Below, one piece after another: positions 20,184 to 57,695 of a stretch of DNA of 64,000 bases. Numbering within the stretch: position 1 is the stretch's first letter; every line of letters begins with the position of its first letter. This DNA is from a virus. Its lineage: Duplodnaviria; Heunggongvirae; Uroviricota; Caudoviricetes. The translations under genes and the position numbers were made by a program. A model generated the notes under the pieces. The model was not told the DNA's origin. It ran no database searches and was given only the letters and a program-made list of their open reading frames with translations. Where the stretch lies: IMG/VR virus record IMGVR_UViG_3300042892_004166, positions 15,097 through 79,096 of that record; one strand, written 5' to 3'.

Positions 20184-20278
20184 CAAAGGAATAATTACTC
20201 CAGTATGATTGGTAAGCGCCGGGAACTAAGGCCCGGTTGGCAAAGTAAATTATTTAGAGGTAAGCAAAAGACTAAATT

Positions 20279-20350
20279 GGATCTTTAGCTCAGAGGCAGA
20301 GCGGTTGTTTGTTAGGCAACGGGTCGAGATTTCGAAATTCTCAGGGTCCT
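20279..20350 (+). tRNA. tRNA-Asn: tRNA-Asn(GTT) copy 1
   Basis: D-arm GCTCagaggcaGAGC. Anticodon arm GTTGT-ttGTTag-GCAAC. T-arm GAGATTTCGAAATTCTC. Confidence 0.5.
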
Positions 20351-20356
20351 CAAAAT

Positions 20357-20428
20357 TCTTCTCTCGTATAAAGGTTATTACGGATGACTGTTAATCATTT
20401 TATCTAGGTTCGAGTCCTAGGGGAAGAG
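20357..20428 (+). tRNA. tRNA-Asn: tRNA-Asn(GTT) copy 2
   Basis: Anticodon arm GATGA-ctGTTaa-TCATT. T-arm CTAGGTTCGAGTCCTAG. Confidence 0.5.
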
Positions 20429-20492
20429 CAAATTACCATTAAGGAATGATACGAGCCTGCAAAGTTCGAAAAGAGTCAGATGGTAATCAACT

Positions 20493-20566
20493 AGTGGTAT
20501 AGCTCAATTGGTTAGAGCACTTCGCTGATACCGAAGAGGTTTTAGGTTCGATTCCTAATATCACTA
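20493..20566 (+). tRNA. tRNA-Ile: tRNA-Ile(GAT)
   Basis: D-arm GCTCaattggttaGAGC. Anticodon arm CTTCG-ctGATac-CGAAG. T-arm TTAGGTTCGATTCCTAA. Confidence 0.6.
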
Positions 20567-20572
20567 CAATAA

Positions 20573-20654
20573 GGGTAGCAAAAGTCGTTCGGATACGGCA
20601 GCCGGTCTGTAAAATCGGTCTCTAAAGGGAGTGGTTCGAGTCCACTGCTGCCCA
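20573..20654 (+). tRNA. tRNA-Tyr: tRNA-Tyr(GTA), extended variable arm
   Basis: Anticodon arm CCGGT-ctGTAaa-ATCGG. T-arm AGTGGTTCGAGTCCACT. Confidence 0.5.
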
Positions 20655-20678
20655 CGTAAAAAAGAGATGTTGGTTCGA

Positions 20679-20703
20679 ATCCAACCTGGTCCTGGGAAAC
20701 TGG
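20679..20703 (+). other. Orphan T-arm/acceptor-like fragment (GTTGGTTCGAATCCAAC-CTGGTCC) without a matching 5' half
   Basis: T-arm motif present but no complementary acceptor within 90 nt upstream that is not already used by tRNA-Tyr. Confidence 0.3.
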
Positions 20704-20734
20704 GTCGGTATTATAACGGATATTATACTTTTAT

Positions 20735-20810
20735 GGACCTTTGGTATAGCTGGTGCGTACGCTAGTCTGAAGAACTAGAGGAGTAGGTTCGATTCCTACA
20801 GGGTCCACCA
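20735..20810 (+). tRNA. tRNA-Phe: tRNA-Phe(GAA) with encoded CCA
   Basis: Anticodon arm CTAGT-ctGAAga-ACTAG. T-arm GTAGGTTCGATTCCTAC. Ends AGGGTCC-A-CCA. Confidence 0.6.
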
Positions 20811-20989
20811 AAATGTCCGTAGTCAATGGTGACAACTGGATCTTTTAACTAGTTATGTATGGAACACTTTAGACGTAAGGTGGAAAATCATGAAGAGTTA
20901 AATAGAATATGCCTCTGAAAGGTCGACAAGATGAGAGTATTTGACAAGATTCGGTAGACAGGTTCGATCCCTGTTACGTGGCTCTAAAA

Positions 20990-21067
20990 TGCGATGTTGG
21001 TCAGAGACGGTCTCATGAGCCGTATCGGTAGATATACCCTCCAGAGGTTCAACTCCTCTAATCGCAA
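20990..21067 (+). tRNA. tRNA, anticodon undetermined
   Basis: Acceptor TGCGATG/AATCGCA (6/7). T-arm AGAGGTTCAACTCCTCT. Confidence 0.35.
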
Positions 21068-21074
21068 CTAGGTC

Positions 21075-21165
21075 AGATATGTAGCTCAGTGGTAGAGCAA
21101 TCCTCAGTACTTCGCAGTTGCAAGGAACATGGACGTGCCGGACAGTTCAATTCTGCCCATATCTA
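21075..21165 (+). tRNA. Long tRNA (91 nt) with canonical D-arm TAGCTCAGTGGTAGAGC; anticodon arm not resolved
   Basis: Acceptor AGATATG/CATATCT is perfect. 41 nt lie between D-arm and T-arm. Confidence 0.4.
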
Positions 21166-21241
21166 CAAAAAAATCGTCTTGGGTCATTTAATATGATTTA
21201 ATGGGTAAAACCTGGTAGGTTAAGCGATATCCTACATATTT

Positions 21242-21312
21242 ACGGGTGTAGTGCAACGGTAGCATTCTGGTCTCCAACACCAGCGATGGGGGTTCAAATC
21301 CCTCCACCCGTG
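21242..21312 (+). tRNA. tRNA-Trp: tRNA-Trp(CCA)
   Basis: Acceptor ACGGGTG/CACCCGT is perfect. Anticodon arm CTGGT-ctCCAac-ACCAG. T-arm GGGGGTTCAAATCCCTC. Confidence 0.65.
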
Positions 21313-21319
21313 CTGTAAG

Positions 21320-21394
21320 GTTCTTGTAGCTAAATTGGTGAAGGCGCTCGGCTCATAACCGAGAGATATGGAGGTTCGATCCCTCCCAAGGACA
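21320..21394 (+). tRNA. tRNA-Met: tRNA-Met/fMet/Ile2(CAT)
   Basis: Anticodon arm CTCGG-ctCATaa-CCGAG. T-arm GGAGGTTCGATCCCTCC. Confidence 0.6.
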
Positions 21395-21399
21395 CAATT

Positions 21400-21472
21400 A
21401 GTCTATTAGTTCAACGGATAGTAACATTCGACTACGGATCGGAAGATGAGGGTTCGAATCCTTCATAGACTA
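21400..21472 (+). tRNA. tRNA-Arg: tRNA-Arg(ACG)
   Basis: Acceptor AGTCTAT/ATAGACT is perfect. Anticodon arm TTCGA-ctACGga-TCGGA. T-arm GAGGGTTCGAATCCTTC. Confidence 0.6.
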
Positions 21473-21517
21473 CTAAGGCAAATTTAAAAGTTCGAATAAT
21501 ATGTAGATATATATAAT

Positions 21518-22150
21518 ATGAAAACATGTGAAAATTGCAACAACGAACATGAAGGAACTTATGGTTCTGGCAGATTCTGTTCAACAAAATGTTCTAGAGG
21601 TTTTAGTACTAAAGCCAAAAGAAAAGAAATTAATGAAAAAGTTTCTAAAAAAATAAGTGCCAATGCAAACCCTGACGTTAAACTATGTTGCATGTCATGT
21701 CAAAATGAATTTACGGTAAAATGGCACAAAAGAAATTCTAAATTTTGTTCTAAATCATGTGCAGTTGCACATCCTAATCATTTAGAATACAGTAGAAGAG
21801 GTGGATTAAATAGCGCTAAATCTCAAAATAAAAGAAGCAAAAATGAAATACTATTTGCTGAATTATGTCAAAATGAATTTAAAAATATTTTAACAAATGA
21901 ATGTATATTTAATGGATGGGATGCAGACGTTATAATACCTTCAATAAAAATTGCTATTTTATGGAATGGTAAATGGCACTATGAAAAAATTACCAAAAAT
22001 CATTCATTAGAACAGGTCCAAAACAGAGATAGGATAAAAATCCAAGAAATAATTAAATGTGGATATGTTCCTTATATAATTAAAGATTCTGGTAGATATA
22101 ATGAAAAATTTGTATTAAGTGAATTTGAAAAATTAAAAAATGCGATATAA
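21518..22150 (+). CDS. Putative homing endonuclease: N-terminal Cys-rich zinc-binding repeats + C-terminal DUF559/Vsr-like PD-(D/E)xK nuclease domain
   Basis: CENCNNEH...CSTKCSRGF and CCMSCQNEF...CSKSCAVAH. C-terminal GWDADVIIPSIKIAILWNGKWH...RDRIKIQEIIKCGYVPYII. Sits between tRNA clusters, as T4 segB does. Confidence 0.45.
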   Translation: MKTCENCNNEHEGTYGSGRFCSTKCSRGFSTKAKRKEINEKVSKKISANANPDVKLCCMSCQNEFTVKWHKRNSKFCSKSCAVAHPNHLEYSRRGGLNSAKSQNKRSKNEILFAELCQNEFKNILTNECIFNGWDADVIIPSIKIAILWNGKWHYEKITKNHSLEQVQNRDRIKIQEIIKCGYVPYIIKDSGRYNEKFVLSEFEKLKNAI

Positions 22151-22212
22151 CTCAGAGGAAGAGTACTCCGCTCATATTGGAGATGTCAGGATTTCGAAAT
22201 TCCTTATCGCAA
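22141..22212 (+). tRNA. tRNA-Met: tRNA-Met/Ile2(CAT), overlaps the 3' end of the upstream CDS
   Basis: Acceptor TGCGATA/TATCGCA is perfect. D-arm ACTCagaggaaGAGT. Anticodon arm CTCCG-ctCATat-TGGAG. Confidence 0.6.
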
Positions 22213-22222
22213 CAAAATACAA

Positions 22223-22295
22223 TCTCTCGAAGCTCATGTGGACGGGCACTCCGCTTTTAACGGAGGGGTAGATGGTTCGAGGCCATCCGGGGGAA
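22223..22295 (+). tRNA. tRNA-Lys: tRNA-Lys(TTT)
   Basis: Anticodon arm CTCCG-ctTTTaa-CGGAG. T-arm GATGGTTCGAGGCCATC. Confidence 0.6.
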
Positions 22296-22359
22296 CAATT
22301 AGACTGTTAAGGTAGGACGTCAGTCACGGAGAGGTGAGCCATACCTAACCCTCTCAAAA

Positions 22360-22430
22360 CTCGAATTGGCGTAATGGTAGCGTATTTGTTTTACATGCAA
22401 AGGGCAGTGGTTCGATTCCACTATTCGAGA
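22360..22430 (+). tRNA. tRNA-Val: tRNA-Val(TAC)
   Basis: Acceptor CTCGAAT/ATTCGAG is perfect. Anticodon arm TTTGT-ttTACat-GCAAA. T-arm AGTGGTTCGATTCCACT. Confidence 0.6.
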
Positions 22431-22437
22431 CTAATAT

Positions 22438-22510
22438 GGTGTTTCTAGCTTAATCGGTAAAGTGCTACACTGTGAATGTAGAGAACAGGGTTCGAAACCC
22501 GGAAACACAC
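22438..22510 (+). tRNA. tRNA-His: tRNA-His(GTG)
   Basis: Anticodon arm CTACA-ctGTGaa-TGTAG. Discriminator C with an extra 5' G. T-arm CAGGGTTCGAAACCCGG. Confidence 0.55.
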
Positions 22511-22604
22511 GACGATACCCAGAGGGTATAAGTCCTGGTCAGAGATTTATTCTTGCAAACTTGGTACCTAAAGCCGAGCGGCCAATCTACGGGATTGGCT
22601 TTAT

Positions 22605-22677
22605 GCCCCTATAGCATAAATGGAAATGCAACATCCTTCTAAGATGTTAAATGGAGATTCGAATTCTTCTAGGGGTA
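22605..22677 (+). tRNA. tRNA-Arg: tRNA-Arg(TCT)
   Basis: D-arm GCATaaatggaaATGC. Anticodon arm ACATC-ctTCTaa-GATGT. T-arm GGAGATTCGAATTCTTC. Confidence 0.65.
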
Positions 22678-22687
22678 CAAACAAATT

Positions 22688-36720: not shown

Positions 36721-36727
36721 AAATAAA

Positions 36728-36787
36728 TTGATTAAAGTTTTACCGATTAAAAACTTTTGTTTATATTTACATATAATTAAAAACAAC
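36728..36787 (+). promoter_or_regulatory. Intergenic cassette copy (short variant)
   Basis: AGTTTTACCGATTAAAAAC + TTGTTTATATTTACATATAATTAAAAAC. ATG at 36795. Confidence 0.5.
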
Positions 36788-36794
36788 ATATCAG

Positions 36795-37667
36795 ATGATA
36801 ATATTAGACTTGGTTAACCCAGAAAAATCACAGATTAAATACAAAATTAGTCAATTTCCTGACGGTCAGCAAACAGTAGACCTTACGGATTGGAAAGACT
36901 TATTAAGATACGAAGACGCTGTGAAAATCAATTCACGTTTAAATACCTTTAAAGACTTAGAACTGATTATTTGCGCAACTGCAGCCGTTCGTAATATTAA
37001 ACCAACCAGAGAAATTGCACTTTATGTTCCTTATTTTATAGGAGCCCGTTCAGACCGTAAATTTGTTGAAGGCGGAGTTAATTACTTAAAGCAAGTTATT
37101 TGCCCAATTATCAATTCCTTAAACTTTGTAACAGTAATTACATTAGACCCTCATTCAGATGTTTTAGAAGCATGTTTGAATAACTACGAGAAGGTAGATA
37201 ATCACACACTTGCAAAACATGCACTATCAAAGATTGATAATAAGATTGGTGCCCAAGACAGAATTTGTTTAGTAAGTCCAGATGCTGGAGCCTACAAAAA
37301 AATCTATGATGTTGCAAAGAAGTTTGGAATTGAAAATATTATTACCGCAACTAAGGTCCGTGATATGCGAAGTGGAAATATTCTAAGAACTGAGATTCCT
37401 ACATTGAATCAACACGATGACTTAAAATATGTTATCATTGATGATATCTGCGATGGTGGTAGAACCTTTATTGAACTTGCAAAAGCAATCAAAGGAAGCA
37501 GACCAACTGCTAAAGTTTATCTAGTAGTAACTCATGGTATTTTTAGCACCGGATTTGGAGAATTAAACAAATACTTCGAAGGCATTTATACTACAAATTC
37601 TCATAGAAATGTTGCAGATAATGAATATGAACAAAAAACAAACACAACACAATTTAACGTAATATAA
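36795..37667 (+). CDS. Ribose-phosphate pyrophosphokinase family enzyme (PRPP synthetase; could equally be an ADP-ribose pyrophosphokinase, Adps-type)
   Basis: N-terminal FPDGQQTV. Phosphoribosyl-binding loop VIIDDICDGGRT. Overall Prs architecture. Confidence 0.7.
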   Translation: MIILDLVNPEKSQIKYKISQFPDGQQTVDLTDWKDLLRYEDAVKINSRLNTFKDLELIICATAAVRNIKPTREIALYVPYFIGARSDRKFVEGGVNYLKQVICPIINSLNFVTVITLDPHSDVLEACLNNYEKVDNHTLAKHALSKIDNKIGAQDRICLVSPDAGAYKKIYDVAKKFGIENIITATKVRDMRSGNILRTEIPTLNQHDDLKYVIIDDICDGGRTFIELAKAIKGSRPTAKVYLVVTHGIFSTGFGELNKYFEGIYTTNSHRNVADNEYEQKTNTTQFNVI

Positions 37668-37668
37668 C

Positions 37669-37863
37669 ATGTCAAAAAAACCAAAAACAATATTTGTAGA
37701 GCAATTAGTATTAGTTCAGGACCCAATTTTAGGCTCTAAATATGAACTACAAACGGTAGAAGTAGTAGAATCAGAATTCTTTCAGCATCTTGGAATTGAT
37801 GCAACTACCGAACTAGAAAGGATATTAACTGAAGAAATTAAGAAAGCAACTGATGAACAATAG
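37669..37863 (+). CDS. Small hypothetical protein
   Basis: ORF track. Confidence 0.35.
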   Translation: MSKKPKTIFVEQLVLVQDPILGSKYELQTVEVVESEFFQHLGIDATTELERILTEEIKKATDEQ

Positions 37864-38356
37864 AGACAATAGAGAATTTAGAATGTACGGACTAGTTCCT
37901 TACAATATTAGTCCAATTCAGCAAGGCATCCAGTTCGGTCATGCTGTTGTTGAATACGGACTTGAATTCTCAGAGACTCCAGAGTACCAGACATGGGCCC
38001 GAAGAGACAAGACCTTTATAATTCTAAATGGAGGTACTACTAACAATACGGCTTTTATCAAAGGAACTCTTAACAATCATTATTTTACATTATATGACCA
38101 ATGCATCCGTATTGGAGAATTCCACGAACCAGATTTGGGAGACCAATTAACTGCCGTAGTTTTCTTAGTTGATGATAGAGTATATGATAAAGTTGCTTGG
38201 CCAGATTATGAAGGAGATGCTATAGAAGAAAAACTAGGAGGTAGAAGTCTTGAAAAACAATTTTATGAATGGAAGATGAATTTTGCCGAAACTGAAGAGG
38301 AAGCAGACCAAATCATATTCCTAAGAGATTTCCTTAAACAATTTAGATTTGCATAA
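37853..38356 (+). CDS. Hypothetical protein, tentatively PTH2-like (peptidyl-tRNA hydrolase 2 fold)
   Basis: Weak: GIQFGHAVVEY resembles the PTH2 AAQCSHA segment. Confidence 0.3.
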   Translation: MNNRDNREFRMYGLVPYNISPIQQGIQFGHAVVEYGLEFSETPEYQTWARRDKTFIILNGGTTNNTAFIKGTLNNHYFTLYDQCIRIGEFHEPDLGDQLTAVVFLVDDRVYDKVAWPDYEGDAIEEKLGGRSLEKQFYEWKMNFAETEEEADQIIFLRDFLKQFRFA

Positions 38357-38994
38357 TGGGATATTTGAACGAACAAATAGTATCAGCGATGGGAACAAAC
38401 TATCAAGAAATCCAAGGTGACCTAATCCGTTTGGCAAAACAGGGTACATTTGATGTAATCACCCATGGGTGTAATTGTTTTTGTACTATGGGCGCCGGAA
38501 TAGCGCCTCAAATGGCAGATGCGTTTGGATGCGATGAATTTGAAATGGAACTAACTCAATATATTGAGTATGACGACGAGGGTTACGAGCATTTGGTAAA
38601 AACCAAAAATCGTGGAGACATTAATAAACTTGGTACTATTGATTATCAACACCAATATCTATGGTTTAAGCATCCATCGGTTACAGAACCCGGAGTTGCA
38701 GTTCCAATGAACTCAAAGTCATCAGGTCAACCAGGTGTTAAAGATATTATAGTTGTGAATTCATACACACAGTACAATTATGGTGCTAACCATAAAGATG
38801 GTGTTGCCAAGCCAATTGATTATGAGGCACTTGCGCTTTGTCTACGTAAAATCAATAAGACTTTTGCAGGTAAACGTATTGGACTTCCAAAAATTGGAGC
38901 CGGACTGGCTGGTGGAGATTGGAACAGGATTAAAAACATTATTCAAACAGAATTAAGGGACATGCAAGTGTCAGTTGTAATTTATAAACCATGA
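38356..38994 (+). CDS. Macro-domain-like (ADP-ribose binding/processing) protein
   Basis: FDVITHGCNCFCTMGAGIAPQMADAFG resembles the macro-domain NAAN...GGGV.GAI..AAG segment. Confidence 0.45.
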   Translation: MGYLNEQIVSAMGTNYQEIQGDLIRLAKQGTFDVITHGCNCFCTMGAGIAPQMADAFGCDEFEMELTQYIEYDDEGYEHLVKTKNRGDINKLGTIDYQHQYLWFKHPSVTEPGVAVPMNSKSSGQPGVKDIIVVNSYTQYNYGANHKDGVAKPIDYEALALCLRKINKTFAGKRIGLPKIGAGLAGGDWNRIKNIIQTELRDMQVSVVIYKP

Positions 38995-39185
38995 GAAATT
39001 ATAAAGTAATACACAAGCACGATGGTAATACTACCATACAAAAAATTGAATGCCGAGAAATGACAATTGAACATAGTTCTTATTGCTTTTGGACTGGAGA
39101 TTATGGAGCAACCAATAGGCTTGCATGGGCATTTCCAATTATGTTTACAATTGTAGAAGGTTTACCAGACCCTGAAGAAATTTAA
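38991..39185 (+). CDS. Small hypothetical protein
   Basis: ORF track. Confidence 0.35.
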   Translation: MRNYKVIHKHDGNTTIQKIECREMTIEHSSYCFWTGDYGATNRLAWAFPIMFTIVEGLPDPEEI

Positions 39186-39254
39186 CATAATTTTAACACT
39201 CCCAATTTTACCGATTTAAAACTATTGATTATATTTACATTATAATTAAAACAG
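39181..39254 (+). promoter_or_regulatory. Intergenic cassette copy
   Basis: TTTAACATAATTTTAACAC ... TTGATTATATTTACATTATAATTAAAAC. ATG at 39262. Confidence 0.55.
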
Positions 39255-39261
39255 ATACACT

Positions 39262-39507
39262 ATGACAGAATTACAAAAATGGGAAGCAGTTAATCAATGT
39301 AAAAATGCAAAACAATTAGCAGATTTAATTCTATCCTTTGCAGATTCTTTAGGAATGATACTAGGAAGAGATAGTTTTCATGATGCAACTGAAATGTCTA
39401 ATAATGTTATGGTTGTTATGCGTGATGATTATGCAGACCGCTTACTTACCCGAGAGTATGGAATTAGACAACAAGCAATTTATTTAAGAACAATATCTAA
39501 ATATTAA
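39262..39507 (+). CDS. Hypothetical protein
   Basis: ORF track. Confidence 0.4.
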   Translation: MTELQKWEAVNQCKNAKQLADLILSFADSLGMILGRDSFHDATEMSNNVMVVMRDDYADRLLTREYGIRQQAIYLRTISKY

Positions 39508-39511
39508 TACT

Positions 39512-41041
39512 ATGAACCCATTATTTTTAACAGACGGTTACAAAACAGGACATCACCAACAATATCCAAAAGGGACTACGTTGGTCTATTCGAACTTTAC
39601 TCCTCGTAGTAATAAATATGCTCCTAAAGGTTGCAACCAACTAGTAAGTTTCGGCCAACAAATGGTAATGAAACAAATCCACGAGGCTTTTGACAAAGAT
39701 TTCTTTAGCAAACCAAAAGACAAAGTTTGTGGCGAAATGAAAAACGAATTGTCAATGTACTTAAATACTGACTACGATGTTAGCCACTTTGAAGCCCTAC
39801 ATGATTTGGGTTACCTACCAATCGCAGTTAAATCGATTGAGGAAGGAGCTACAGTACCAATGAGAGTACCTGTCTTGACAATTTACAACACACATCCAGA
39901 TTTCTATTGGATTACCAATTACTTGGAGACAGTTATTTCTAACTTGTTATGGAAACCAATGACAAGTGCAACTATTTCCCATGCTTACCGTAAATTATTT
40001 ACAGAATGGCAATTAAAAACTGATGCCGAAAAAGGTTGGTTCGTAGATTGGCAAGCCCATGATTTCTCAATGAGAGGTATGGACTCTATAGATGCTACAA
40101 TCTCTTCAGGATTAGGACACTTAACAAGTTTCTCTGGTTCAGATAGTTTACCTGCAATCTTTGGAGCCCGTAAATATTACAATGAAACTGGATTTGTATC
40201 TGGTTCGGTAAATGCAACAGAGCACTCAGTAATGTGTGCTGGAAGTAAAGATGATGAGATTGGAACCTTCCGTAGATTATTGGAGACATATCCAACAGGA
40301 ATTCTTTCAGTAGTTTCTGACACATGGGACTTATGGAAAGTTTGTACTGAACATATCGTTACCTTAAAAGAGGAAATCCTTGCAAGAGATGGTAAATTAG
40401 TTATTCGTCCTGACTCAGGAGACCCTGTAGATATTATTTGCGGTGCTAATATAATCAAAACAAATGTTCATAGCGATAATGACGTAGTTGCTTACTTAGG
40501 TGGAGTAGCAGAAGTTAATCCTACTGATGAATATTTAAACAAACCAGAAGTAAAAGGTGTTATTGAATTACTTTGGGATGTATTCGGTGGAACTATTAAC
40601 GACCAAGGTTATAAAGTATTAGACCCTCATATTGGAGCAATCTACGGAGACAGTATTACATTAGACCGTGCTGAACAAATCTTCACAAGATTAGAGGCAA
40701 AAGGTTTTGCAAGTACAAACATTGTATTAGGTGTTGGAAGTTTTACATACCAATATAACACTAGAGATACTTTTGGTTTTGCAATGAAAGCCACCTATGT
40801 AGAAGTTGATGGAGTTGGAAGAGAAATCTTTAAAGACCCAATCACTGATGATGGAGTTAAAAAATCTGCAAAAGGTTTATTAAGAGTTGCTGGAGCTGTA
40901 GAAGATAATTTCTACATACTAGAAGACCAATGTACTTGGGAAGATGAAAAGTCTGGATTGTTAAAAACTATCTATTTGAATGGTCAATTTGAAAACCAAA
41001 CAACTCTTACAGAAATTAGAAAACGTTTAACTAATCTATAA
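39512..41041 (+). CDS. nadV: Nicotinamide phosphoribosyltransferase (NAMPT/NadV family)
   Basis: LTDGYKTGHHQQYP matches NAMPT DSYKVTHYKQYP. HDFSMRGMDS matches HDFGYRG. ~500 aa. Confidence 0.8.
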   Translation: MNPLFLTDGYKTGHHQQYPKGTTLVYSNFTPRSNKYAPKGCNQLVSFGQQMVMKQIHEAFDKDFFSKPKDKVCGEMKNELSMYLNTDYDVSHFEALHDLGYLPIAVKSIEEGATVPMRVPVLTIYNTHPDFYWITNYLETVISNLLWKPMTSATISHAYRKLFTEWQLKTDAEKGWFVDWQAHDFSMRGMDSIDATISSGLGHLTSFSGSDSLPAIFGARKYYNETGFVSGSVNATEHSVMCAGSKDDEIGTFRRLLETYPTGILSVVSDTWDLWKVCTEHIVTLKEEILARDGKLVIRPDSGDPVDIICGANIIKTNVHSDNDVVAYLGGVAEVNPTDEYLNKPEVKGVIELLWDVFGGTINDQGYKVLDPHIGAIYGDSITLDRAEQIFTRLEAKGFASTNIVLGVGSFTYQYNTRDTFGFAMKATYVEVDGVGREIFKDPITDDGVKKSAKGLLRVAGAVEDNFYILEDQCTWEDEKSGLLKTIYLNGQFENQTTLTEIRKRLTNL

Positions 41042-41316
41042 TGAATAGACAGTACTCACCAGTACCTTTAATAATAGTAATTTTGGCTGCACTAGTAATC
41101 TTTATGGTTACTAGTTGCAAACCAGATAATTATAAAGACCCACATCAAAATACTAGTGCTAGTCGTTACGAATTAGATAGTACTTCAAAATATTACGATC
41201 AACGCTATAGAGTTTATACTCTTGAAGGTTGCGAGTATATAGTTGCAGGTTCGGGAAGTTCTCGATGGGGTTCACATAAAGGAAATTGTAAAAATCCAAT
41301 ACACGAATGCAAATAA
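41041..41316 (+). CDS. Small lipoprotein
   Basis: Signal peptide + lipobox MVTSC. Confidence 0.4.
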   Translation: MNRQYSPVPLIIVILAALVIFMVTSCKPDNYKDPHQNTSASRYELDSTSKYYDQRYRVYTLEGCEYIVAGSGSSRWGSHKGNCKNPIHECK

Positions 41317-42020
41317 CAATTTACACGGTAGCATATAATGAAGAACTTATGCTACCGTTTTTTATTAAACATTATAGAGCATCATTTCCGGACTGCCGAA
41401 TTGTTGTATACAATAACCAATCAACGGACAGAACTGTAGAAATTGCAAAAGAATTTAATTGTGAGGTTATTCAATACGACACTGGAGATAATTTTTCTGA
41501 TAGAAAAAATCTAGAAATTAAAAACAATTGCTGGAAAGATTCAAAAACCGACTGGAATATTGTCTGTGATGCTGATGAACTTGGTCTCATTACTAGAGAA
41601 CAATTAGAATATGAATCTGGACTGGGAACATCAATAATAAAATTTACCGGTTGGAATATGGTTAATATGTCCGAAGACCCAGCAGATATTAGCATTGATA
41701 CCTTACAATATGGTGAGTATACTCATTATTATAATAAAAGTATTGCATTTGATAAAAGCAAAATCTCTGAAATCAATTTCTATCCAGGATGCCATGAGGC
41801 AGCCCCTCGGGGTGATGTTACATATTCATTAAATCAATATAACCTACTGCATTATAAATATATTGGAGAGGACTATATGGTTAATCGATACCGTCTATTC
41901 CGTTCAAGACTATCGGAAGATAACATAAAACTGGGATGGGGTTACCATTATAATGAAGAAGAGGAAAAACTTCGACAATCATTTAAAATTAAAAAACACA
42001 ACGCAATTAAAATAATATAA
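41307..42020 (+). CDS. Family-2-like glycosyltransferase (GT-A fold)
   Basis: N-terminal ITIYTVAYNEELMLPFF...VVYNNQSTDRT...DTGD is typical of a GT2 start and DxD-like region. Confidence 0.45.
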   Translation: MQITIYTVAYNEELMLPFFIKHYRASFPDCRIVVYNNQSTDRTVEIAKEFNCEVIQYDTGDNFSDRKNLEIKNNCWKDSKTDWNIVCDADELGLITREQLEYESGLGTSIIKFTGWNMVNMSEDPADISIDTLQYGEYTHYYNKSIAFDKSKISEINFYPGCHEAAPRGDVTYSLNQYNLLHYKYIGEDYMVNRYRLFRSRLSEDNIKLGWGYHYNEEEEKLRQSFKIKKHNAIKII

Positions 42021-42022: not shown

Positions 42023-42490
42023 ATGCAAGTAATTAAACCAAATAGCAGGTACCAAAACCAAGAAAATAAATGTTCAGTATTTTTAGCCGGTTCTATAGAA
42101 ATGGGAAAGGCAGAAGATTGGCAAAAGAGAATCGAGAACAATTACATTAATACCAATGTAACACTTTACAATCCAAGACGTGATGATTGGGATGCTAGCT
42201 GGACTCAAGAACAATCAAATCCTCAATTTAACCAACAAGTAAACTGGGAAATGAATAGTCTTGAAAATGCAGATATAATCTTCATGTACTTCTCTCCAGA
42301 AACTAAGAGTCCAATTAGTCTCCTAGAATTAGGTTTACATGTCAGAGATAATATTATCGTATGTTGTCCTAAAGGGTTTTGGCGAAAAGGAAATGTCGAC
42401 ATTGTATGTACTCGATATAACATTCCAATCTTTGAAAATCTAGACGATGCGATTGGCGCACTAACCACAAAGATTAATCAAAAACTTTAA
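42023..42490 (+). CDS. Nucleoside 2-deoxyribosyltransferase-like protein
   Basis: SVFLAGSIEMG ... NPRRDDW pattern of the NDT family. Confidence 0.45.
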   Translation: MQVIKPNSRYQNQENKCSVFLAGSIEMGKAEDWQKRIENNYINTNVTLYNPRRDDWDASWTQEQSNPQFNQQVNWEMNSLENADIIFMYFSPETKSPISLLELGLHVRDNIIVCCPKGFWRKGNVDIVCTRYNIPIFENLDDAIGALTTKINQKL

Positions 42491-42561
42491 CATAATTTTA
42501 ACACTCCAGATTTTACGGTCTGGAGTTTTTTGTTTATATTTACATTATAATTAAAACAAAC
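42485..42561 (+). promoter_or_regulatory. Intergenic cassette copy with hairpin CTCCAGAttttacggTCTGGAG
   Basis: Core TTGTTTATATTTACATTATAATTAAAACAAAC. ATG at 42567. Confidence 0.6.
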
Positions 42562-42566
42562 AAATT

Positions 42567-43307
42567 ATGGCAAAGATTTACCGTGTTGGAGGATGTATTC
42601 GAGATAAATTCCTTGGATTGGACTCTAAAGATATAGATTTCACTTTCGTGTTGGAAGATACTAAAGGTTTTACGGTTGAGGATGGTTTTCAAATCATGAC
42701 AAACTGGATGACGGACCAAGGTTTTGAAATCTTCTTAAGTACTCCAGATTGTTTTACGATTCGTGCTAAGTTTCCAAAAGACCATCAGTTCGCCGGACTG
42801 GTTGCAGATTTTGTAATGGCCCGTAAAGAGGTTGGATATGTTGAAGGAACCCGTAGACCTATCCTAGAACTTGGAACATTGGAAGACGATTTAATTCGTA
42901 GAGATTTTACCCTAAACGCCCTTGCAGAAGATGTTGATGGTAATCTTATTGACCTATTCGGTGGAGTAGAGGACTTAAAGGCTGGAATTTTAAGAACTCC
43001 GATGCACGCTAGCGCTACCCTAATGGATGACCCACTTCGTTTGCTAAGAGCACTAAGATTTACTATCACTAAAGATTTTCAAATGCACGCTGATATTTGG
43101 AATGCGATGAAGCAACCAAACATTTTACAGAAACTAGAACAAACTGTAAGTGGAGAGAGAATCAGAGAGGAAATCATAAAAATGATGAAACATGATACTC
43201 CAAGAAGTTTTAGACTACTTGCTGACGTTGACCAAGATATTCCAGGATTCTTAGATTTAATCTTTAAAAATGGGATGTGGCTGAAACCAACTTTTGAAAA
43301 AATATAA
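42567..43307 (+). CDS. tRNA nucleotidyltransferase (CCA-adding enzyme) / poly(A) polymerase head domain
   Basis: YRVGGCIRDKFLG...DIDF (GGxVRD...DxD). RRDFTLNA. LFGGVEDL. DDPLRLLRALRF. Confidence 0.75.
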   Translation: MAKIYRVGGCIRDKFLGLDSKDIDFTFVLEDTKGFTVEDGFQIMTNWMTDQGFEIFLSTPDCFTIRAKFPKDHQFAGLVADFVMARKEVGYVEGTRRPILELGTLEDDLIRRDFTLNALAEDVDGNLIDLFGGVEDLKAGILRTPMHASATLMDDPLRLLRALRFTITKDFQMHADIWNAMKQPNILQKLEQTVSGERIREEIIKMMKHDTPRSFRLLADVDQDIPGFLDLIFKNGMWLKPTFEKI

Positions 43308-45180: not shown

Positions 45181-45585
45181 ATGATTAGAGTATATTTAGA
45201 TGACGTAAGAACACCGGTTGAAAAAGACTGGGTTGTTGTTAGAAGTTACGATGAATTTGTAGAAAAAGTTACCGAAATTGGACTTGAAAATATTGACTTG
45301 ATTTCATTAGACCATGACCTAGGAGACACTGCAATGGCCGAATGGCATAAAAATGTGTACCACAATTACGAATTGAACTATGATAATATTACAGAAAAGA
45401 CTGGAATGGATTGCACTAAATGGTTGGTCAATCAATGGTTGGATGGAGCTAATGTTGTTGATGTTGTAATACACTCTGCAAATGCAGTTGGTAGTGCAAA
45501 TATGATGGGTTATATTAATAACTATAGACATATTCATAGATTGCCTCAGAATTGCATCCGTGTAAGAATCGAACATACTGTATAA
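45181..45585 (+). CDS. Hypothetical protein
   Basis: ORF track. Confidence 0.4.
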   Translation: MIRVYLDDVRTPVEKDWVVVRSYDEFVEKVTEIGLENIDLISLDHDLGDTAMAEWHKNVYHNYELNYDNITEKTGMDCTKWLVNQWLDGANVVDVVIHSANAVGSANMMGYINNYRHIHRLPQNCIRVRIEHTV

Positions 45586-46021: not shown

Positions 46022-46597
46022 ATGAAAGTAATATTTTTAGACAATGACGGAGTAATATGCCTAGATAATAACTGGGGAGGTCGTTCAAAGAAATGGGCTA
46101 AGTACAAAAAACTTAATCCTGAAGCGACTAGCGATACTATAGCTCCGGTTGACATACGATTTGACAACTTTGATAAAAAAGCAATTAAGGTATTAAACCA
46201 AATCTTGGAAGAGACTTGTGCCGAAATAGTAGTAAGTTCCGACTGGAGGTTACATGCAAACTTAGAGGAAATTGGAGAATACTACGAATCACAGGGAATC
46301 TTAAAGAAACCTATCGCATTCACTAAAAGATATATTGGTTGTGATAAACCAGATGAATTTGAATGGACCCGAAGAACAATGTACGAACAGCAGCGTTCTA
46401 TCGAAGTTCGACAATATCTAACCGATCATCCAGAAATTACCAATTGGGTTTGCGTTGATGACTTAGAATTAGGAGAAGCGGATTCTCATGGAAAGGAACA
46501 AGTATGGGGACTATCTAACTTTGTTAATACTCCAAAAATGGCAGAAGGAATTAAACAGCAAGGTGTTAAAGAAAAGATTTTACAATTTTTAAAATAA
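46022..46597 (+). CDS. HAD-superfamily hydrolase-like protein
   Basis: Motif I VIFLDNDGVI (DxDG). Confidence 0.4.
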   Translation: MKVIFLDNDGVICLDNNWGGRSKKWAKYKKLNPEATSDTIAPVDIRFDNFDKKAIKVLNQILEETCAEIVVSSDWRLHANLEEIGEYYESQGILKKPIAFTKRYIGCDKPDEFEWTRRTMYEQQRSIEVRQYLTDHPEITNWVCVDDLELGEADSHGKEQVWGLSNFVNTPKMAEGIKQQGVKEKILQFLK

Positions 46598-53658: not shown

Positions 53659-53742
53659 TAATCGGTTGGTGTAACAGGAGTATTCCTGCTAGGGTTAACA
53701 TGGACGGTAAGTCCGGATAGGGGTTCGAATCCCTTACCGATT
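53659..53742 (+). tRNA. Type II tRNA (84 nt), anticodon undetermined
   Basis: Acceptor AATCGGT/ACCGATT is perfect. Variable-arm hairpin GGAC-ggtaa-GTCC. T-arm AGGGGTTCGAATCCCTT. Confidence 0.4.
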
Positions 53743-53794
53743 TCAAAAATAAAACGGCTCTGCAGAGCTAGGAGAGGTCTGGTTAAAGTGGGCA

Positions 53795-53830
53795 GTGCCA
53801 ACACAGGAAGTTCGAATCTTCCCTCTCTAC
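53795..53830 (+). other. tRNA-like T-arm/acceptor fragment (GGAAGTTCGAATCTTCC-CTCTCTA-C) without a clear canonical 5' half
   Basis: T-arm motif only; no folded D/anticodon arms found by eye. Confidence 0.25.
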
Positions 53831-54077
53831 TAAAAACTACTTGAGTAGGTGGGAGTGGTCAATCAACAACTCACTGAAGTTTCAGGTAAACTTATATTTA
53901 AAACGGGACGGGCGAGCCTATTATAGAGTAAGTAGCAAGTTAATGATTTTTAGGAGGATTGGATCAGTTTTTAACATTAGCGAAGGAGTCAGGTGGAGAA
54001 ATGGCACCAAAGTATAAAACAAAGGGCAGGACGCAAAGTCACTGAACATAGAGGAGAGGTTGAGGAACTTCCATTAC

Positions 54078-54106
54078 TTGTAGGTTCGAATCCTACACTG
54101 ACCACA
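54078..54106 (+). other. tRNA-like 3' half: T-arm GTAGGTTCGAATCCTAC + ACTGACC-A-CCA
   Basis: Ends in encoded ACCA, but no complementary 5' acceptor within 100 nt upstream. Confidence 0.3.
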
Positions 54107-54264
54107 ATGAGTTGATTACTCAGATGATGTGCGTATCTATAAAACGTACCGACATACTCTTGGGCGTGAGGCAAGAGCGGGTTTTGAAATTCAGTTGCGC
54201 CGTTACGGAAACTGGGCTTGGAGGGCAATAAACTTCATGAGGTCTAATCAACCATAATTGCAAA

Positions 54265-54350
54265 AGGTCAGGTGGCGGAATTGGAGAGACGCAACTCTAT
54301 ATGGAGTGGAGGTGAAAGAAACTCATACAGGTTCGAATCCTGTCCTGACT
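54265..54350 (+). tRNA. Leu-like type II tRNA with non-canonical anticodon loop
   Basis: 5' GGTCAGG-TG-GCGGAATTGGAGAGACGC closely matches bacterial tRNA-Leu. Anticodon arm CTCTA-tatggag-TGGAG has A33. T-arm ACAGGTTCGAATCCTGT. 3' CCTGACT-A. Confidence 0.4.
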
Positions 54351-54408
54351 ACGCTAATTAAACTAGTTTATGAACAGTCTTTGAGGTGCGATGCCTCCAT
54401 TAGAACGG

Positions 54409-54474
54409 AAGTCAGGTGAAAGTAGGCTAAGACGAATTAAGTTTCGCGTTGCAGGTTCGATTCCTGTCCTGACT
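54409..54474 (+). tRNA. Truncated tRNA-like element (66 nt) sharing its 3' half with 54265-54350
   Basis: Acceptor AGTCAGG/CCTGACT is perfect. T-arm GCAGGTTCGATTCCTGT. Too short for a full D-arm. Anticodon-like hairpin CGAA-ttaagt-TTCG. Confidence 0.3.
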
Positions 54475-54480
54475 ACAAAT

Positions 54481-54555
54481 TGTTAATAACTTTTTATCAA
54501 AAAGTTTTACCGATTGAAATATATTGATTATATTTACATATCTAATTAAAACAAA
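54481..54555 (+). promoter_or_regulatory. Intergenic cassette copy
   Basis: TGTTAATAACTTTTTATC...AGTTTTACCGATTGAAA...TTGATTATATTTACATATCTAATTAAAACAAAT. ATG at 54556. Confidence 0.55.
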
Positions 54556-55846
54556 TATGAACTTACAAGACATTCAAGATTTCGTTACTGAGTCGAATCA
54601 AACTAACTCTAATACTGACAAATTAAACGTACTTAAAAAGTATGCCAAAAACGATTCAGTACTTCTTGCTCTTAATTACACCTATAATACTTTTAAACAG
54701 TATGGTGTCTCCTCAGAGAATTGCAAAAAGAATTCTAACTTGGTAAAACAAAACTATCCGAACCTATCACAATTGCTTGATGATTTGAATGACCGTAACA
54801 TTACCGGACATACTGCAATTAGTTGTGTTAATGGGTTCATCGAAGCAAATAGGGATTACGAGGAGTTGATTTTTAATATAATTGATAGAAACCTTAAGAC
54901 CCGTTCGACAACATCTATGATTAACAAAGTGATTCCAGGGTTGATTCCTACATTCGATGTTGCATTGGCTAATTCTTACGATGAGAAAACGGCAAAGAAG
55001 GTAGACTTTGATGATATTTGGTTTGTAAGTCGTAAATTGGACGGATGTAGATGTATTTGTATCATTAATGAAGATGGAGAACCTACATATTTCTCTAGAG
55101 CTGGAAATGAGTTTATGACTCTTAAGAACCTGGACGCTGAGATTATCTCATTAGGCCTAAAGAATATGGTTATTGATGGAGAAATCTGTATATTGGATGC
55201 TAATGGAAATGAAAACTTCCAAGGTATCATTAAAGAAATCAAACGTAAAGACCATACAATTGAAAATCCATTCTTTTATATGTTTGACCTTTTAACCATG
55301 GAGGAATTCATTAACAAAGAAGGTACTACAACCTTTGGAATCCGAAATGTTCAATTGGATAACCTTTTCTTTCAAAGAGAATTTACCAAAATTGACTACC
55401 TACCCCAGACTATCTTATTAGATGAGAGAATGCTAACGTATCATGTAGTTCAGGCAAAAGAAAATGGATGGGAAGGACTAATGTTACGTAAAGATGCTCC
55501 TTACCAAGGAAAACGTAGTAACGATGTACTTAAGGTAAAACAATTCTACGATGCAGAATATGTTGTAGTTGACATCGAATATGCAGTCAATAGAGTTATC
55601 GTAGATGGTAAAGAGGTTGCAGAGATGATGATGCGAAATGTTGTAATTGAGCATAAAGGTTATAGAGTTCAAGTTGGTAGTGGGTTCTCTCACGAACAAA
55701 AAAGATTCTACTTCGAGAATCCTAACGAAATTCTTGGAAAACAAATAACAGTTCAGTACTTCGAAGAGACAAAAAATCAAAATGGCGGAATATCTTTAAG
55801 ATTTCCAACCGTAAAAGCAATATATGAAAATGGAAGAGATTGTTAA
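54556..55846 (+). CDS. ATP-dependent DNA ligase
   Basis: Motif I FVSRKLDGCRCI (KxDG). OB-domain region present. The track start 54524 is an extension translating the promoter (IIFTYLIKT). ATG at 54556 follows the cassette. Confidence 0.7.
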
Positions 55847-56069
55847 TCCTTACGCGGAACGTTTCTTAGAGAGAAACTCATTTAAGAATGTTGGTCCTAA
55901 TAAATGGGCCAACGATAAATGTTTAATAACAATTCTAGAGGACTGTTATATGGTTCAATTCACTAATTTTGATGGAAATTGGGAAATGAACACTGATTCA
56001 TATTCACTTCCGCATTTGGTTGGAGTACTAACATGGCATGACCTTTTAGACCGTAACTATGCAAAATAA
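55824..56069 (+). CDS. Hypothetical protein
   Basis: ORF track. Confidence 0.35.
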   Translation: MKMEEIVNPYAERFLERNSFKNVGPNKWANDKCLITILEDCYMVQFTNFDGNWEMNTDSYSLPHLVGVLTWHDLLDRNYAK

Positions 56070-56074
56070 TTAAG

Positions 56075-56407
56075 ATGACAATTAGACACTATAAGAAAGC
56101 ATATTGGATAGGAAGAGATTCTTTTGGCAAAATGATTTATGATGGAGATACTGTTGAGGTTTGGTTACCTTGGGAGACTGGAAGTCCACACCAATCTAAA
56201 GTATTTTGGAATCGTATGGATGGAGCATTCATTGAGTCACATCCGGCGCATAATGCAATTCATGGAAAGGTACATCATCGAGACCTACGTTCATATCTCA
56301 ACACCGAACCTGTTCCTACTTGGAGTTATGAGGAAAACGATGAAGGAACTATTGTTGGCTACAAACAAGGATATGTAAAGAAAGTTAAATCATTTTATAC
56401 CGAATAA
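56075..56407 (+). CDS. Hypothetical protein
   Basis: ORF track. Confidence 0.4.
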   Translation: MTIRHYKKAYWIGRDSFGKMIYDGDTVEVWLPWETGSPHQSKVFWNRMDGAFIESHPAHNAIHGKVHHRDLRSYLNTEPVPTWSYEENDEGTIVGYKQGYVKKVKSFYTE

Positions 56408-56408
56408 T

Positions 56409-56624
56409 ATGGCAAGAGAAGTATCACTTACAATATGTACAAACTGCTTGGATGATTTTCCTAGCAAGGACCTTTACACAGTTTCCAGGAAATCGCATCG
56501 AGGAGTCGAAGATAATCATGACGAATATTATGCGCCTTATTGTACAAAGTGTCTAAAAGACAAGGCATCATACCTAAAAATTATTAGTGAGCCTAAGAGC
56601 ATGAAATTAAAACAAAAGAAATAA
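56409..56624 (+). CDS. Small zinc-ribbon-like protein
   Basis: CTNC ... CTKC pairs. Confidence 0.35.
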   Translation: MAREVSLTICTNCLDDFPSKDLYTVSRKSHRGVEDNHDEYYAPYCTKCLKDKASYLKIISEPKSMKLKQKK

Positions 56625-56625
56625 C

Positions 56626-56868
56626 ATGGAAGAACAAGGATTAATATTAGAAGAGGCATCATTCCGTTTCTCACAAGATGGTAATTGTATATCTGACCCT
56701 GATGAGTTTGAATTCCTAGAAATCGAAGCCCGTTCAAGTCTTGGAATTGACCGAGATAATGATTGTTTCTTTGTCCTTAAAACCAAAAAATGGTCAGTAG
56801 ATTCTATAGAAGACCTTGAAAAATTATTTAACAGAATTAGAAAAGTAGTAATAAATGGAAAAGAATAA
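56626..56868 (+). CDS. Small acidic hypothetical protein
   Basis: ORF track. Confidence 0.35.
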   Translation: MEEQGLILEEASFRFSQDGNCISDPDEFEFLEIEARSSLGIDRDNDCFFVLKTKKWSVDSIEDLEKLFNRIRKVVINGKE

Positions 56869-57067
56869 AGTATTTGTCGGACAAGAATTCCGAACTAACC
56901 CGCAATCAGCCATCCCAGGTGGAAGTGTAGTTGAGGTTCATTATGCAACCAGAATTAAAGTGTATGATAACATTAAGAACCCAAAGGCCTATGTTAAATA
57001 CATAACATCAAATAGCGATGAGCCGGTTATTTCAATCTTAGTTGATGGAAAACCATCTAATTTTTGA
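56855..57067 (+). CDS. Small hypothetical protein
   Basis: ORF track. Confidence 0.35.
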   Translation: MEKNKVFVGQEFRTNPQSAIPGGSVVEVHYATRIKVYDNIKNPKAYVKYITSNSDEPVISILVDGKPSNF

Positions 57068-57116
57068 AACATTATTTAAAAGGGATATATAACATCTAAA
57101 TTTAAAAACTATAACA

Positions 57117-57293
57117 ATGGAAGATTTATTAAATCAAATCGTAGAGGCTGTTGATTCTATTAGAGTAGATGCTGCTAAATTTGAAGAAAAACAAAATGGC
57201 GCTGCTGGAACAAGAGTTCGTAAAGCAATGCAAACTATTAAGACTTTGGCTCAAGATGTGAGAACTCATATCTCTGAAGCTAAAAATGCTTAA
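57117..57293 (+). CDS. Small helical hypothetical protein (58 aa)
   Basis: Hand-translated MEDLLNQIVEAVDSIRVDAAKFEEKQNGAAGTRVRKAMQTIKTLAQDVRTHISEAKNA. Confidence 0.3.
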   Translation: MEDLLNQIVEAVDSIRVDAAKFEEKQNGAAGTRVRKAMQTIKTLAQDVRTHISEAKNA

Positions 57294-57371
57294 AACAATA
57301 TTTTAAAGGATACGTTCAGCAAACTAAAAAACTTTGACTGTAATTCAAACAAACAGTTATCCTGTAAATTT

Positions 57372-57450
57372 AGGCCGGTGGTGGAATGGTAGACACATCA
57401 TCCTTAAACGGTGACGCTTATGCGTGAGGGTTCGACTCCCTTTCGGCCTA
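57372..57450 (+). tRNA. tRNA-Leu: tRNA-Leu(TAA)
   Basis: Acceptor AGGCCGG/TCGGCCT. D-arm GTGGAATGGTAGACAC. Anticodon arm TCATC-ctTAAac-GGTGA. Variable hairpin CGC-ttat-GCG. T-arm GAGGGTTCGACTCCCTT. Confidence 0.6.
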
Positions 57451-57695
57451 CAATCTTAAAACCAGTTCGCGTTGAGGTATCAAGTAGTGGCGTGCGGTAA
57501 CGATGAAACAGTCGTTGAGTCTTTCAGAACAAGACATAAAAGAATTCGAAACCTTGGAATAGATAAGTATTCCTAAAGCTACCACTGAAGGTGATGTTGG
57601 TGACCTTCTAAAAACAAAGTGTCTTGGTACGCTCTGCTGTTGTGGCAACGACAAGGTCTCGGTAGGCAGAAGGCCTCTGACCTACCCAAAACTAA

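Follow-up and report, generated by a model that had tools for sequence, protein, structure and literature searches.

In phages, NAD+ reconstitution pathway 1 (NARP1) comprises two reactions, in which Adps uses ATP and ADP-ribose (ADPR) to make ADPR pyrophosphate (ADPR-PP), and Namat then joins ADPR-PP to nicotinamide to yield NAD+; a related pathway, NARP2, consists of Nampt and Nmnat (Osterman et al., 2024, 10.1101/2024.02.11.579819; structures of NARP1 enzymes are described in PMC12774641 and PMC13586617). About 15% of NARP1 operons also contain a macro-domain gene, and the pathway so extended is known as NARP1-AP, for NARP1 with associated phosphatase. The phosphatase, Adpp, was shown experimentally to convert ADPR-1''-phosphate, the product of RES-type NADases, into ADPR (Osterman et al., 2026, 10.64898/2026.01.28.702374). 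A RyR-domain glycosidase (RyDEP) is another known insert in NARP1 operons. Here we analyse a locus on a 64,000-nucleotide stretch of phage DNA, positions 15,097 to 79,096 of IMG/VR record IMGVR_UViG_3300042892_004166, which in its entirety is called the window. Three co-oriented open reading frames (ORFs) on the + strand, at 36795-37667 (290 residues), 38356-38994 (212 residues) and 39512-41041 (509 residues), had been assigned in a preliminary description to the Prs, macro-domain and NAMPT families and read as a NARP1-like gene set. The ORF calls and the PHROG and Pfam matches bear out these assignments, as do AlphaFold2 and Foldseek for the macro fold. We consider it very probable that the locus is NARP1-AP, carried by an uncultured large phage; it is taken as an instance of the extended pathway because a macro gene accompanies the genes for Adps and Namat.

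In the proposed scheme, host NADase defences would split NAD+ into nicotinamide and ADPR. Adps would then move pyrophosphate from ATP onto ADPR, forming ADPR-PP, which Namat would couple to nicotinamide, giving NAD+ directly and without a nicotinamide mononucleotide (NMN) intermediate. The macro protein, most likely acting as Adpp, would strip the 1''-phosphate from ADPR-1''-phosphate, and in this way the product of RES-type NADases could also enter the pathway. The three enzymes would together counter such defences, those described for NARP1 being Thoeris, DSR, SIR2-HerA and SEFIR. That the macro domain might process an ADPR-derived product had also been proposed in the preliminary description, in agreement with the role shown for Adpp (10.64898/2026.01.28.702374).

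The putative Adps and Namat enzymes

The protein encoded at 36795-37667 matches PHROG 619 ('ribose-phosphate pyrophosphokinase', 7e-69) and Pfam Pribosyltran (3e-8). It falls under the cut-off of every curated ribose-phosphate diphosphokinase model of NCBIfam, and far below that of the equivalog models. With TIGR01251, it scored 86 bits against a cut-off of 113, as compared to 423 bits for E. coli Prs, whose scores on the curated models are 423-533 bits. Conversely, a hidden Markov model (HMM) of the Adps proteins of SPbetaL1, ICP1, Gary and Bas60 gave 190 bits with the window protein and 100 bits with E. coli Prs. Only canonical PRPS chains were found in a PDB sequence search, for which a copy of the PDB without the ICP1 Adps structure was used.

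The determinants of Adps, including a remodelled PP loop and ATP-donor site (C215-S220, F221), were defined on the ICP1 enzyme (Liu et al., PMC13586617). We aligned the window protein with E. coli Prs and with four Adps proteins: that of ICP1, whose structure has been solved, that of Gary, from a validated pathway, that of Bas60, encoded in an Adps-Namat operon of a coliphage, and that of a Leptolyngbya phage; the ICP1 residues were mapped from the ICP1 genome record. Residues F18, R87, F92, H121, D161, K185, D212, D213, I214, C215, D216 and F221 of ICP1 are all conserved in the window protein. Those that contact the adenine of ADPR (F18, R87 and F92) correspond to F21, R85 and F90, E. coli Prs having Val where ICP1 has F92. 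Conservation extends to H120 and D163, and the catalytic β-hairpin lysine, K187, aligns with K185 in ICP1 and K192 in Gary. Bas60 Adps has exactly the same PP loop, DDICDGGRTFIELAK, which is unlike that of Prs, DDMIDTGGTLCKAAE; in the PP-loop region the window protein reads DDICDGGRTF, ICP1 Adps DDICDGAASF and E. coli Prs DDMIDTGGTL. Unlike in ICP1 Adps, where it is F223, one position is occupied by Glu in the window protein, and likewise in Bas60. The protein ends at residue 290, and the C-terminal α11-α12 regulatory module of Prs is absent. We predict that the gene codes for an Adps-type enzyme, which would form ADPR-PP and AMP from ADPR and ATP.

The product of 39512-41041 matches PHROG 448 ('nicotinamide phosphoribosyl transferase', 4.5e-191), Pfam NAPRTase (7e-38) and Pfam NAMPT_N. 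Among PDB sequences it scores best with 9w5x and 9w5w (517 bits), followed by 9ke8 (440 bits), with canonical Nampt at 227 bits. All three entries were deposited as 'Nicotinamide phosphoribosyltransferase', and the aligned residues of 9w5x and 9w5w agree with SPbetaL1 Namat as given in the supplement of the 2026 study. Namat enzymes are distinguished by a 'selectivity clamp' helix with the motif GSX-phi-X-phi-X-phi-TRD, in which X is aromatic (Lan et al., PMC12774641). The helix of the window protein, G409-SFTYQYNTRD-419 (GSFTYQYNTRD), fits this motif exactly. As NARP2 controls we used NadV/NatV of Aeromonas phage 31 and the KVP40 sequences from the published supplement; the motif is absent from both, with GGGLLQMVNRD in NadV of Aeromonas phage 31 and GGGLLQQLDRD in KVP40 Nampt. 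In the clamp loop, adenine is stacked by the third residue (R, K or Y) or, if the third is K or Y, by the fourth (PMC12774641). The loop of the window protein has the Namat length, with S-N-K35-Y36 following a TPR motif, which would fit a Lys-then-stacker pattern in the register given by the alignment. The Nampt-like catalytic core (D8, Y10, F185, R188, D211, H238, R299 and D301) is conserved, and H238, the phospho-histidine, aligns with H243 of Gary. A tblastn search of phages with Namat gave a bimodal distribution, Namat-type proteins at 35-52% identity and T4-like NadV below 30%, and the window protein lies in the Namat mode. We predict a Namat-type enzyme that would form NAD+ directly from ADPR-PP and nicotinamide. 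The protein has a lineage-specific 34-residue insertion in a variable loop (residues 313-346), which is absent from an 88%-identical relative.

We compared the locus with 13 related IMG/VR loci in which Adps is 58-89% identical. Namat is present in all 13, the macro gene in 10, the gene for a Pth2-like protein in six, and NADAR and Thg1 genes in four each. The exact locus also recurs on several independent metagenome contigs. Because of this recurrence, and because Adps and Namat occur together in every related locus, the gene set is not a product of chance.

The macro protein and alternative readings

The product of 38356-38994 matches PHROG 335 ('phosphatase', 3e-41) and, below the cut-off by plain hmmscan, Pfam Macro (5e-4). 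By the published rule, NARP1-AP is detected as a macro-domain protein, identified by HHpred, within two genes of the NARP1 genes (10.64898/2026.01.28.702374). The Adps and Namat genes lie 1.8 kb apart on the same strand, and the macro gene is located between them, two genes from each, which is within the distance set by the rule. The macro protein is homologous over its full length to the validated Adpp of Gary (29% identity, E 3e-18). Its H37 corresponds to Gary H24, a residue whose substitution by Ala abolishes function (10.64898/2026.01.28.702374) and which is invariant in an alignment with the published NARP1-associated macro proteins. The motifs HGCNCFCTMGAGIAP and GLPKIGAGLAGGDW are also found, together with the family invariants of those proteins. 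Hence K187, H37 and H238 conserve all three residues that are lethal to the Gary pathway when mutated. An AlphaFold2 model (predicted local distance difference test, pLDDT, 83) matched the DarG, TARG1 and Poa1p macrodomains in Foldseek, with E values of 9e-8 to 2e-6; Poa1p, named in the published work as the nearest functionally known homologue, ranked fourth (E 9e-7), and its sequence matches were weak. The catalytic Asp125 of TARG1 aligns with Ala in the macro family, whereas the HMMER alignment does not place the catalytic Lys with certainty; TARG1-type and Poa1p-type chemistry can be told apart only in part. The macro gene is inside the operon. The exact macro protein is recorded on a contig of 236,071 bp. 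Two lineage-specific insertions, at about residues 58-84 and 100-130, form extra β-strands.

Several observations weigh against reading the locus as NARP1-AP. Five ORFs and a promoter cassette separate the Adps gene from that for Namat, and validated operons are compact. The search for an NMN adenylyltransferase (NMNAT), described below, covered the 64 kb of the window, out of some 236 kb for the whole genome. PHROG 335 occurs in about 1,850 phage records, and many of these genes, such as those of Cellulophaga phage phi17:2 and of a Phapecoctavirus, do not adjoin NARP1, so that the assignment to Adpp rests largely on adjacency. Among the fold matches, the glycohydrolases DarG and TARG1 are narrowly ahead of Poa1p, and neither of the two insertions of the macro protein is present in Gary Adpp. 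The macro protein is likely to be Adpp, an ADPR-1''-phosphate phosphatase; because the family is widespread, with homologues away from NARP1, and because of the two insertions, this assignment is less secure than those of Adps and Namat.

Could the Adps and Namat candidates belong instead to an ordinary salvage route dependent on phosphoribosyl pyrophosphate (PRPP)? In such a route, similar to NARP2, a true PRPP synthetase would feed NadV/Nampt, and the NMN formed would be completed to NAD+ by an NMNAT of the host or encoded elsewhere by the phage. The two proteins are indeed members of the Prs and Nampt superfamilies, and in vitro roughly half of the NMN-forming activity is still present in Namat enzymes (PMC12774641). 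Yet the Prs-like protein scores under every curated Prs cut-off and has a donor loop of the Adps type, and the transferase carries the aromatic clamp that NARP2 enzymes lack. The preliminary description had seen no NMNAT, and none was found in the window. Pfam scans of 51 ORFs, among them all those of at least 140 residues in the window, revealed no cytidylyltransferase-like domain, and no match at E ≤ 10 was obtained when the six-frame translation of the window was searched by phmmer with three probes (KVP40 Nmnat, the NatV-like protein of Aeromonas phage 31 and a metagenomic CTP_transf protein; positive control, 1e-59). The domains of PnuC and NadR, which mark NARP3 (a PnuC-like transporter with a NadR-like enzyme), were likewise missing from the Pfam scans of these ORFs. 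Moreover, Osterman et al. found no phage with both NARP1 and NARP2 (10.1101/2024.02.11.579819). Ordinary salvage therefore seems extremely improbable to us. Every sequence-level discriminator tested favours NARP1, with predicted Adps and Namat enzymes, over Prs/NadV salvage, which supports the NARP1 reading put forward in the preliminary description.

The role of the macro protein leaves more room for doubt. While Adps and Namat would still constitute NARP1, the macro protein could be a hydrolase of the TARG1, DarG or SCO6735 kind, which strips ADPR from protein, DNA or RNA that host ADP-ribosyltransferase defences have modified; in that case it would be linked to NARP1 only through the ADPR released, or not at all. 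The lead of DarG and TARG1 among the fold matches is consistent with such a hydrolase, as are weak DarG matches in NCBIfam and PADLOC, the best PDB sequence matches (BT1257 and SCO6735, not Poa1p), the many phages in which the family has no NARP1 beside it and the presence, in four of the 13 relatives, of a gene for NADAR, an ADP-ribosyl hydrolase, beside the macro gene. The full-length homology to a validated Adpp with its essential His, the Ala at the position of TARG1 Asp125 and the conserved position of the gene inside the Adps unit argue in the other direction, and we regard a hydrolase of this kind as unlikely. It is also conceivable that the macro protein serves RNA repair, clearing ADPR-1''-phosphate or ADPR 1'',2''-cyclic phosphate (Appr>p) left by a 2'-phosphotransferase that finishes tRNA ligation. 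This would resemble yeast Poa1p, whose native role is in tRNA splicing (10.64898/2026.01.28.702374), and the window contains many tRNA and RNA-repair genes: 29 tRNAs, an RNA ligase, a CCA-adding enzyme, cREC_REC and HAD_SAK_2 proteins and a Pth2-like protein, to which Thg1 is added in relatives. However, no Tpt1/KptA 2'-phosphotransferase domain was detected in any scanned ORF of the window, and in relatives the macro gene travels with the Adps and Namat genes and not with the RNA ligase gene. We judge a role in RNA repair to be very unlikely, and NARP1-AP, with the macro protein as Adpp, is the reading that we retain.

Gene order, cassettes and neighbouring genes

The window is phage-like, with 34% GC, 117 of 132 simple ORF calls on the + strand and genes for an ECF (extracytoplasmic function)-like sigma factor, RNA and DNA ligases and a lysis amidase. 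A megablast search of 50,697 phage records with the locus gave no match; thus, among these records, there is no cultured phage with a near-identical locus. The closest homologues in cultured phages are those of Cellulophaga, Leptolyngbya and Synechococcus phages.

The three genes had been described, with slight overstatement, as standing behind copies of the same promoter cassette. A cassette of about 75 nt, with the core TTG(A/T)TTATATTTACAT...TAAAAC, is real: the window contains it 19 times, in every case on the + strand, where shuffled sequences lead one to expect none; every copy ends 3-21 nt before an ATG. One copy, at 36721-36794 (core TTGTTTATATTTACATATAATTAAAAAC), lies upstream of the Adps gene, its core ending 10 nt before the ATG, and a second, at 39186-39261, heads the Namat unit. 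The macro gene, in contrast, has no copy of its own, being fourth in the Adps unit, and ORF81 intervenes between the second copy and the Namat gene. Since copies occur throughout the window, the cassette is also uninformative on the NAD genes specifically. From the sequence, the genes appear to form two expression units, each behind a promoter-like cassette used phage-wide, a transcription pattern that we infer from this layout.

All genes of the two units are on the + strand, and both units are tightly packed, with reading frames that overlap or abut. The first unit consists of the Adps gene, ORF64a, ORF167, the macro gene and ORF64b, two ORFs thus filling the gap between the Adps and macro genes. 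ORF64a (37669-37863, 64 residues) has no family match, and a homologue follows Adps in six of the 13 related loci. ORF167 (37853-38356, 167 residues) codes for a highly conserved protein that AlphaFold2 (pLDDT 88) and Foldseek assign to the Pth2/Bit1 fold, with a C-terminal helical extension; the best PDB matches are MJ0051, AF2095 Pth and Bit1 (E 2e-4 to 5e-3). Its family has more than 3,500 metagenome members, some on contigs of 200-270 kb, and no Pfam match. We considered ORF167 as an additional NARP1 enzyme and rejected it: because of its Pth2-like fold and its occurrence without NARP1, on a contig that also codes for a T4 Gp23-family capsid protein, it is not counted in the pathway, and its presence in only six of the 13 loci was also taken into account; it probably does not belong to the NAD pathway. 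ORF64b (38991-39185, 64 residues), without a family match, occupies a variable insertion spot.

Two ORFs also separate the macro gene from that for Namat, ORF64b and ORF81. The second unit comprises ORF81, the Namat gene, ORF91, a family-2 glycosyltransferase gene and the gene for a PF15891 protein. ORF81 (39262-39507, 81 residues) has no family match and is kept upstream of Namat in relatives, homologues that are 50-98% identical being found in five of the 13 related loci. ORF91, a small protein with a hydrophobic N-terminus, and the glycosyltransferase (Pfam Glyco_tranf_2_4, 3e-10) are encoded at 41041-42020; they have no evident link to NAD, and their presence varies among the 13 loci. The last gene of the unit, at 42023-42490, codes for a nucleoside-2-deoxyribosyltransferase-like (NDT) protein (PF15891, 1.4e-33). 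The end of the unit is marked at 42491-42566 by a terminator-like hairpin (42503-42526) and the next cassette copy. No Pfam match to a RyDEP (RyR-domain) accessory was found in the small ORFs, and an HMM of seven published aRad1 sequences, inhibitors of aRES, gave nothing significant in the six-frame translation of the window.

Examples of the 19 cassette sites are at 3078, 17401, 26256, 36757, 39225, 42530 and 54524. Two sub-types can be told apart, TTGTTT...ACATTATAATTAAAAC and TTGATT...ACATATCTAATTAAAA. Upstream in the cassette is a hairpin in which the sequence of the stem varies among copies and the loop region, TTTTACCG, is conserved; some copies, that at 42503-42526 among them, carry a GC-rich hairpin with a T-run. 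A sigma-70-family factor with regions 2 and 4 is encoded by the phage at 10577-11191 (+) and could read one class of these cassettes. Shine-Dalgarno-like motifs are depleted (10 of 117 genes against a background of 17%), and the 5' leaders after the cassettes are very short, features typical of Bacteroidota or cyanobacterial hosts. An Rfam search for an NAD+ riboswitch or other structured RNA yielded tRNAs only.

Insertions between Adps and Namat are variable, and in relatives NADAR, HAD_SAK_2 and Thg1 genes take the position of ORF64b. The NADAR gene (Pfam, 165 bits in locus L008) either adjoins the macro gene or lies a little downstream of it, no more than about 0.2 kb away, in L008 (9702-10178, the same as 11760-12233 of L023), L024, L033 and L034. 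It lies between Adps and Namat in three of four loci and after both in L033, and HAD_SAK_2 and Thg1 accompany it in some. In this phage lineage, the gap looks like a swap-in site for ADPR-processing enzymes, the macro protein in the window and macro protein with NADAR in relatives. We found no published link between NADAR and NARP1.

The PF15891 gene adjoins NARP1 in all 13 related loci in spite of rearrangements, the order being Adps-NDT-Namat in three and Namat-Adps-macro-NADAR-NDT in one. We assembled a set of 72 loci anchored on PF15891 homologues (45-100% identity, 57 clusters at 97%), for which the counts that follow ignore shared ancestry. A Namat or Nampt homologue is encoded within 9 kb of PF15891 in 47 of the 72, and within 1 kb in 33, while other neighbours in the window (the CCA enzyme, HAD and ORF91) are found near PF15891 homologues in only 12-14. 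Classified by their clamp motif, these neighbours comprise 34 of the Namat type and six of the Nampt (NARP2-like) type, the latter kind being found beside PF15891 in more distant phages; two of the six Nampt-type loci have a KVP40-like Nmnat within 2.2-2.6 kb. In a third PF15891 locus, Nmnat is at 7.6 kb, and the transferase neighbour, 25% identical, has a clamp motif that was not classified. The closest solved relative of the PF15891 protein of the window is an uncharacterised protein, 4mcj (E 4e-28), and Glu102, a glutamate of the nucleophile type within SPISLLELG, is at least 95% conserved. No published link between this family and NARP pathways was found in the searchable literature. Tentatively, the PF15891 protein may assist NAD+ reconstitution in phages as an accessory enzyme that has gone unrecognised, a possibility to which we give rather less than even weight. 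It could be an N-glycosidase acting on a nucleotide that contains nicotinamide or ADPR, for which N-glycosidic cyclic ADPR signals, NMN or nicotinamide riboside, and AMP are candidate substrates. If so, its activity would feed or protect both NARP1 and NARP2. As the counts ignore shared ancestry among phages, this linkage is a lead and not a result. It is nevertheless, with NADAR in relatives, the only part of the analysis that could change understanding, by pointing to further inputs to the rebuilding of NAD+ by phages.

Elsewhere, the window contains 29 tRNA genes (regions 18340-22678 and 53660-57451), 26 of which form a cluster at 18340-22678. At 20016-20105 ARAGORN called an unusual 90-nt 'tRNA-???' whose anticodon has four bases; Rfam did not confirm this call but found a tRNA at 19412-19480 that ARAGORN had missed. 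A set of RNA-repair genes surrounds the NAD locus (13355-14479, 42567-43307, 45181-45585 and 46022-46597), coding for an RNA ligase, a CCA-adding enzyme, cREC_REC (a cyclic-phosphate receiver domain) and a HAD_SAK_2 phosphatase. Their position around the NAD locus suggests that the region is devoted to countering host defences that target tRNA and NAD. A 188-residue protein encoded at 16371-16937 (+) matches Pfam Acb1, an anti-CBASS phosphodiesterase, with 31.2 bits against a gathering score of 27; judging from this match, it may be the product of a second counter-defence gene or a 2H-phosphoesterase for RNA repair.

Comparison with described pathways

The preliminary description had overrated the novelty of the locus: the pathway and its macro extension are both published already, and the locus is a diverged, non-compact example of low novelty. 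What it adds to the known range of NARP1-AP counter-defence is a lineage of large environmental phages that are rich in tRNAs and have no close cultured relative, and it shows that genes as distant as these are cleanly classified by the published signatures, the PP loop of Adps and the clamp of Namat. Nor need the pathway be a compact operon, as in the window its genes are mixed with unrelated ones and extend over two promoter cassettes; detection rules based on neighbourhood must therefore allow for such a layout.

The NARP1-AP locus of Vibrio phage Gary (10.64898/2026.01.28.702374) has the same three families in the same order, Adps-Adpp-Namat, on one strand, and its Adps K192, Adpp H24 and Namat H243 are kept in the window as K187, H37 and H238. 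Between the two loci, Adps is only 32% identical, Adpp 29% and Namat 44%. Unlike in Gary, the genes of the window are non-contiguous, split into two units by a promoter-like cassette, and the macro protein, with its two insertions, is 54 residues longer than Gary Adpp.

The NARP1 systems of SPbetaL1 (Bacillus), Bas63 (a coliphage) and ICP1 (Vibrio) have in common with the window the donor loop and ADPR contacts of Adps and Namat's clamp together with its catalytic core. Their operons consist of two adjacent genes and, in contrast to the window, include no macro gene; nor does their Namat have the 34-residue insertion (313-346). NARP2 of Vibrio phage KVP40 (Nampt/NadV with Nmnat/NatV) serves the same purpose, the formation of NAD+ from nicotinamide, with a homologous transferase. 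The window differs in its aromatic clamp, GSFTYQYNTRD, which is GGGLLQ..RD in KVP40 and Aeromonas phage 31; its Namat is 27% identical to NadV of the latter by tblastn and 30% in a MAFFT alignment. It differs also in carrying Adps, and no Nmnat was found in the 64 kb. Finally, yeast Poa1p and the TARG1 and DarG macrodomains share with the macro protein of the window the macro fold and the region of an N-terminal H-x-C-N motif, although at 15-22% identity and without the two extra β-strand insertions that set the window protein apart.

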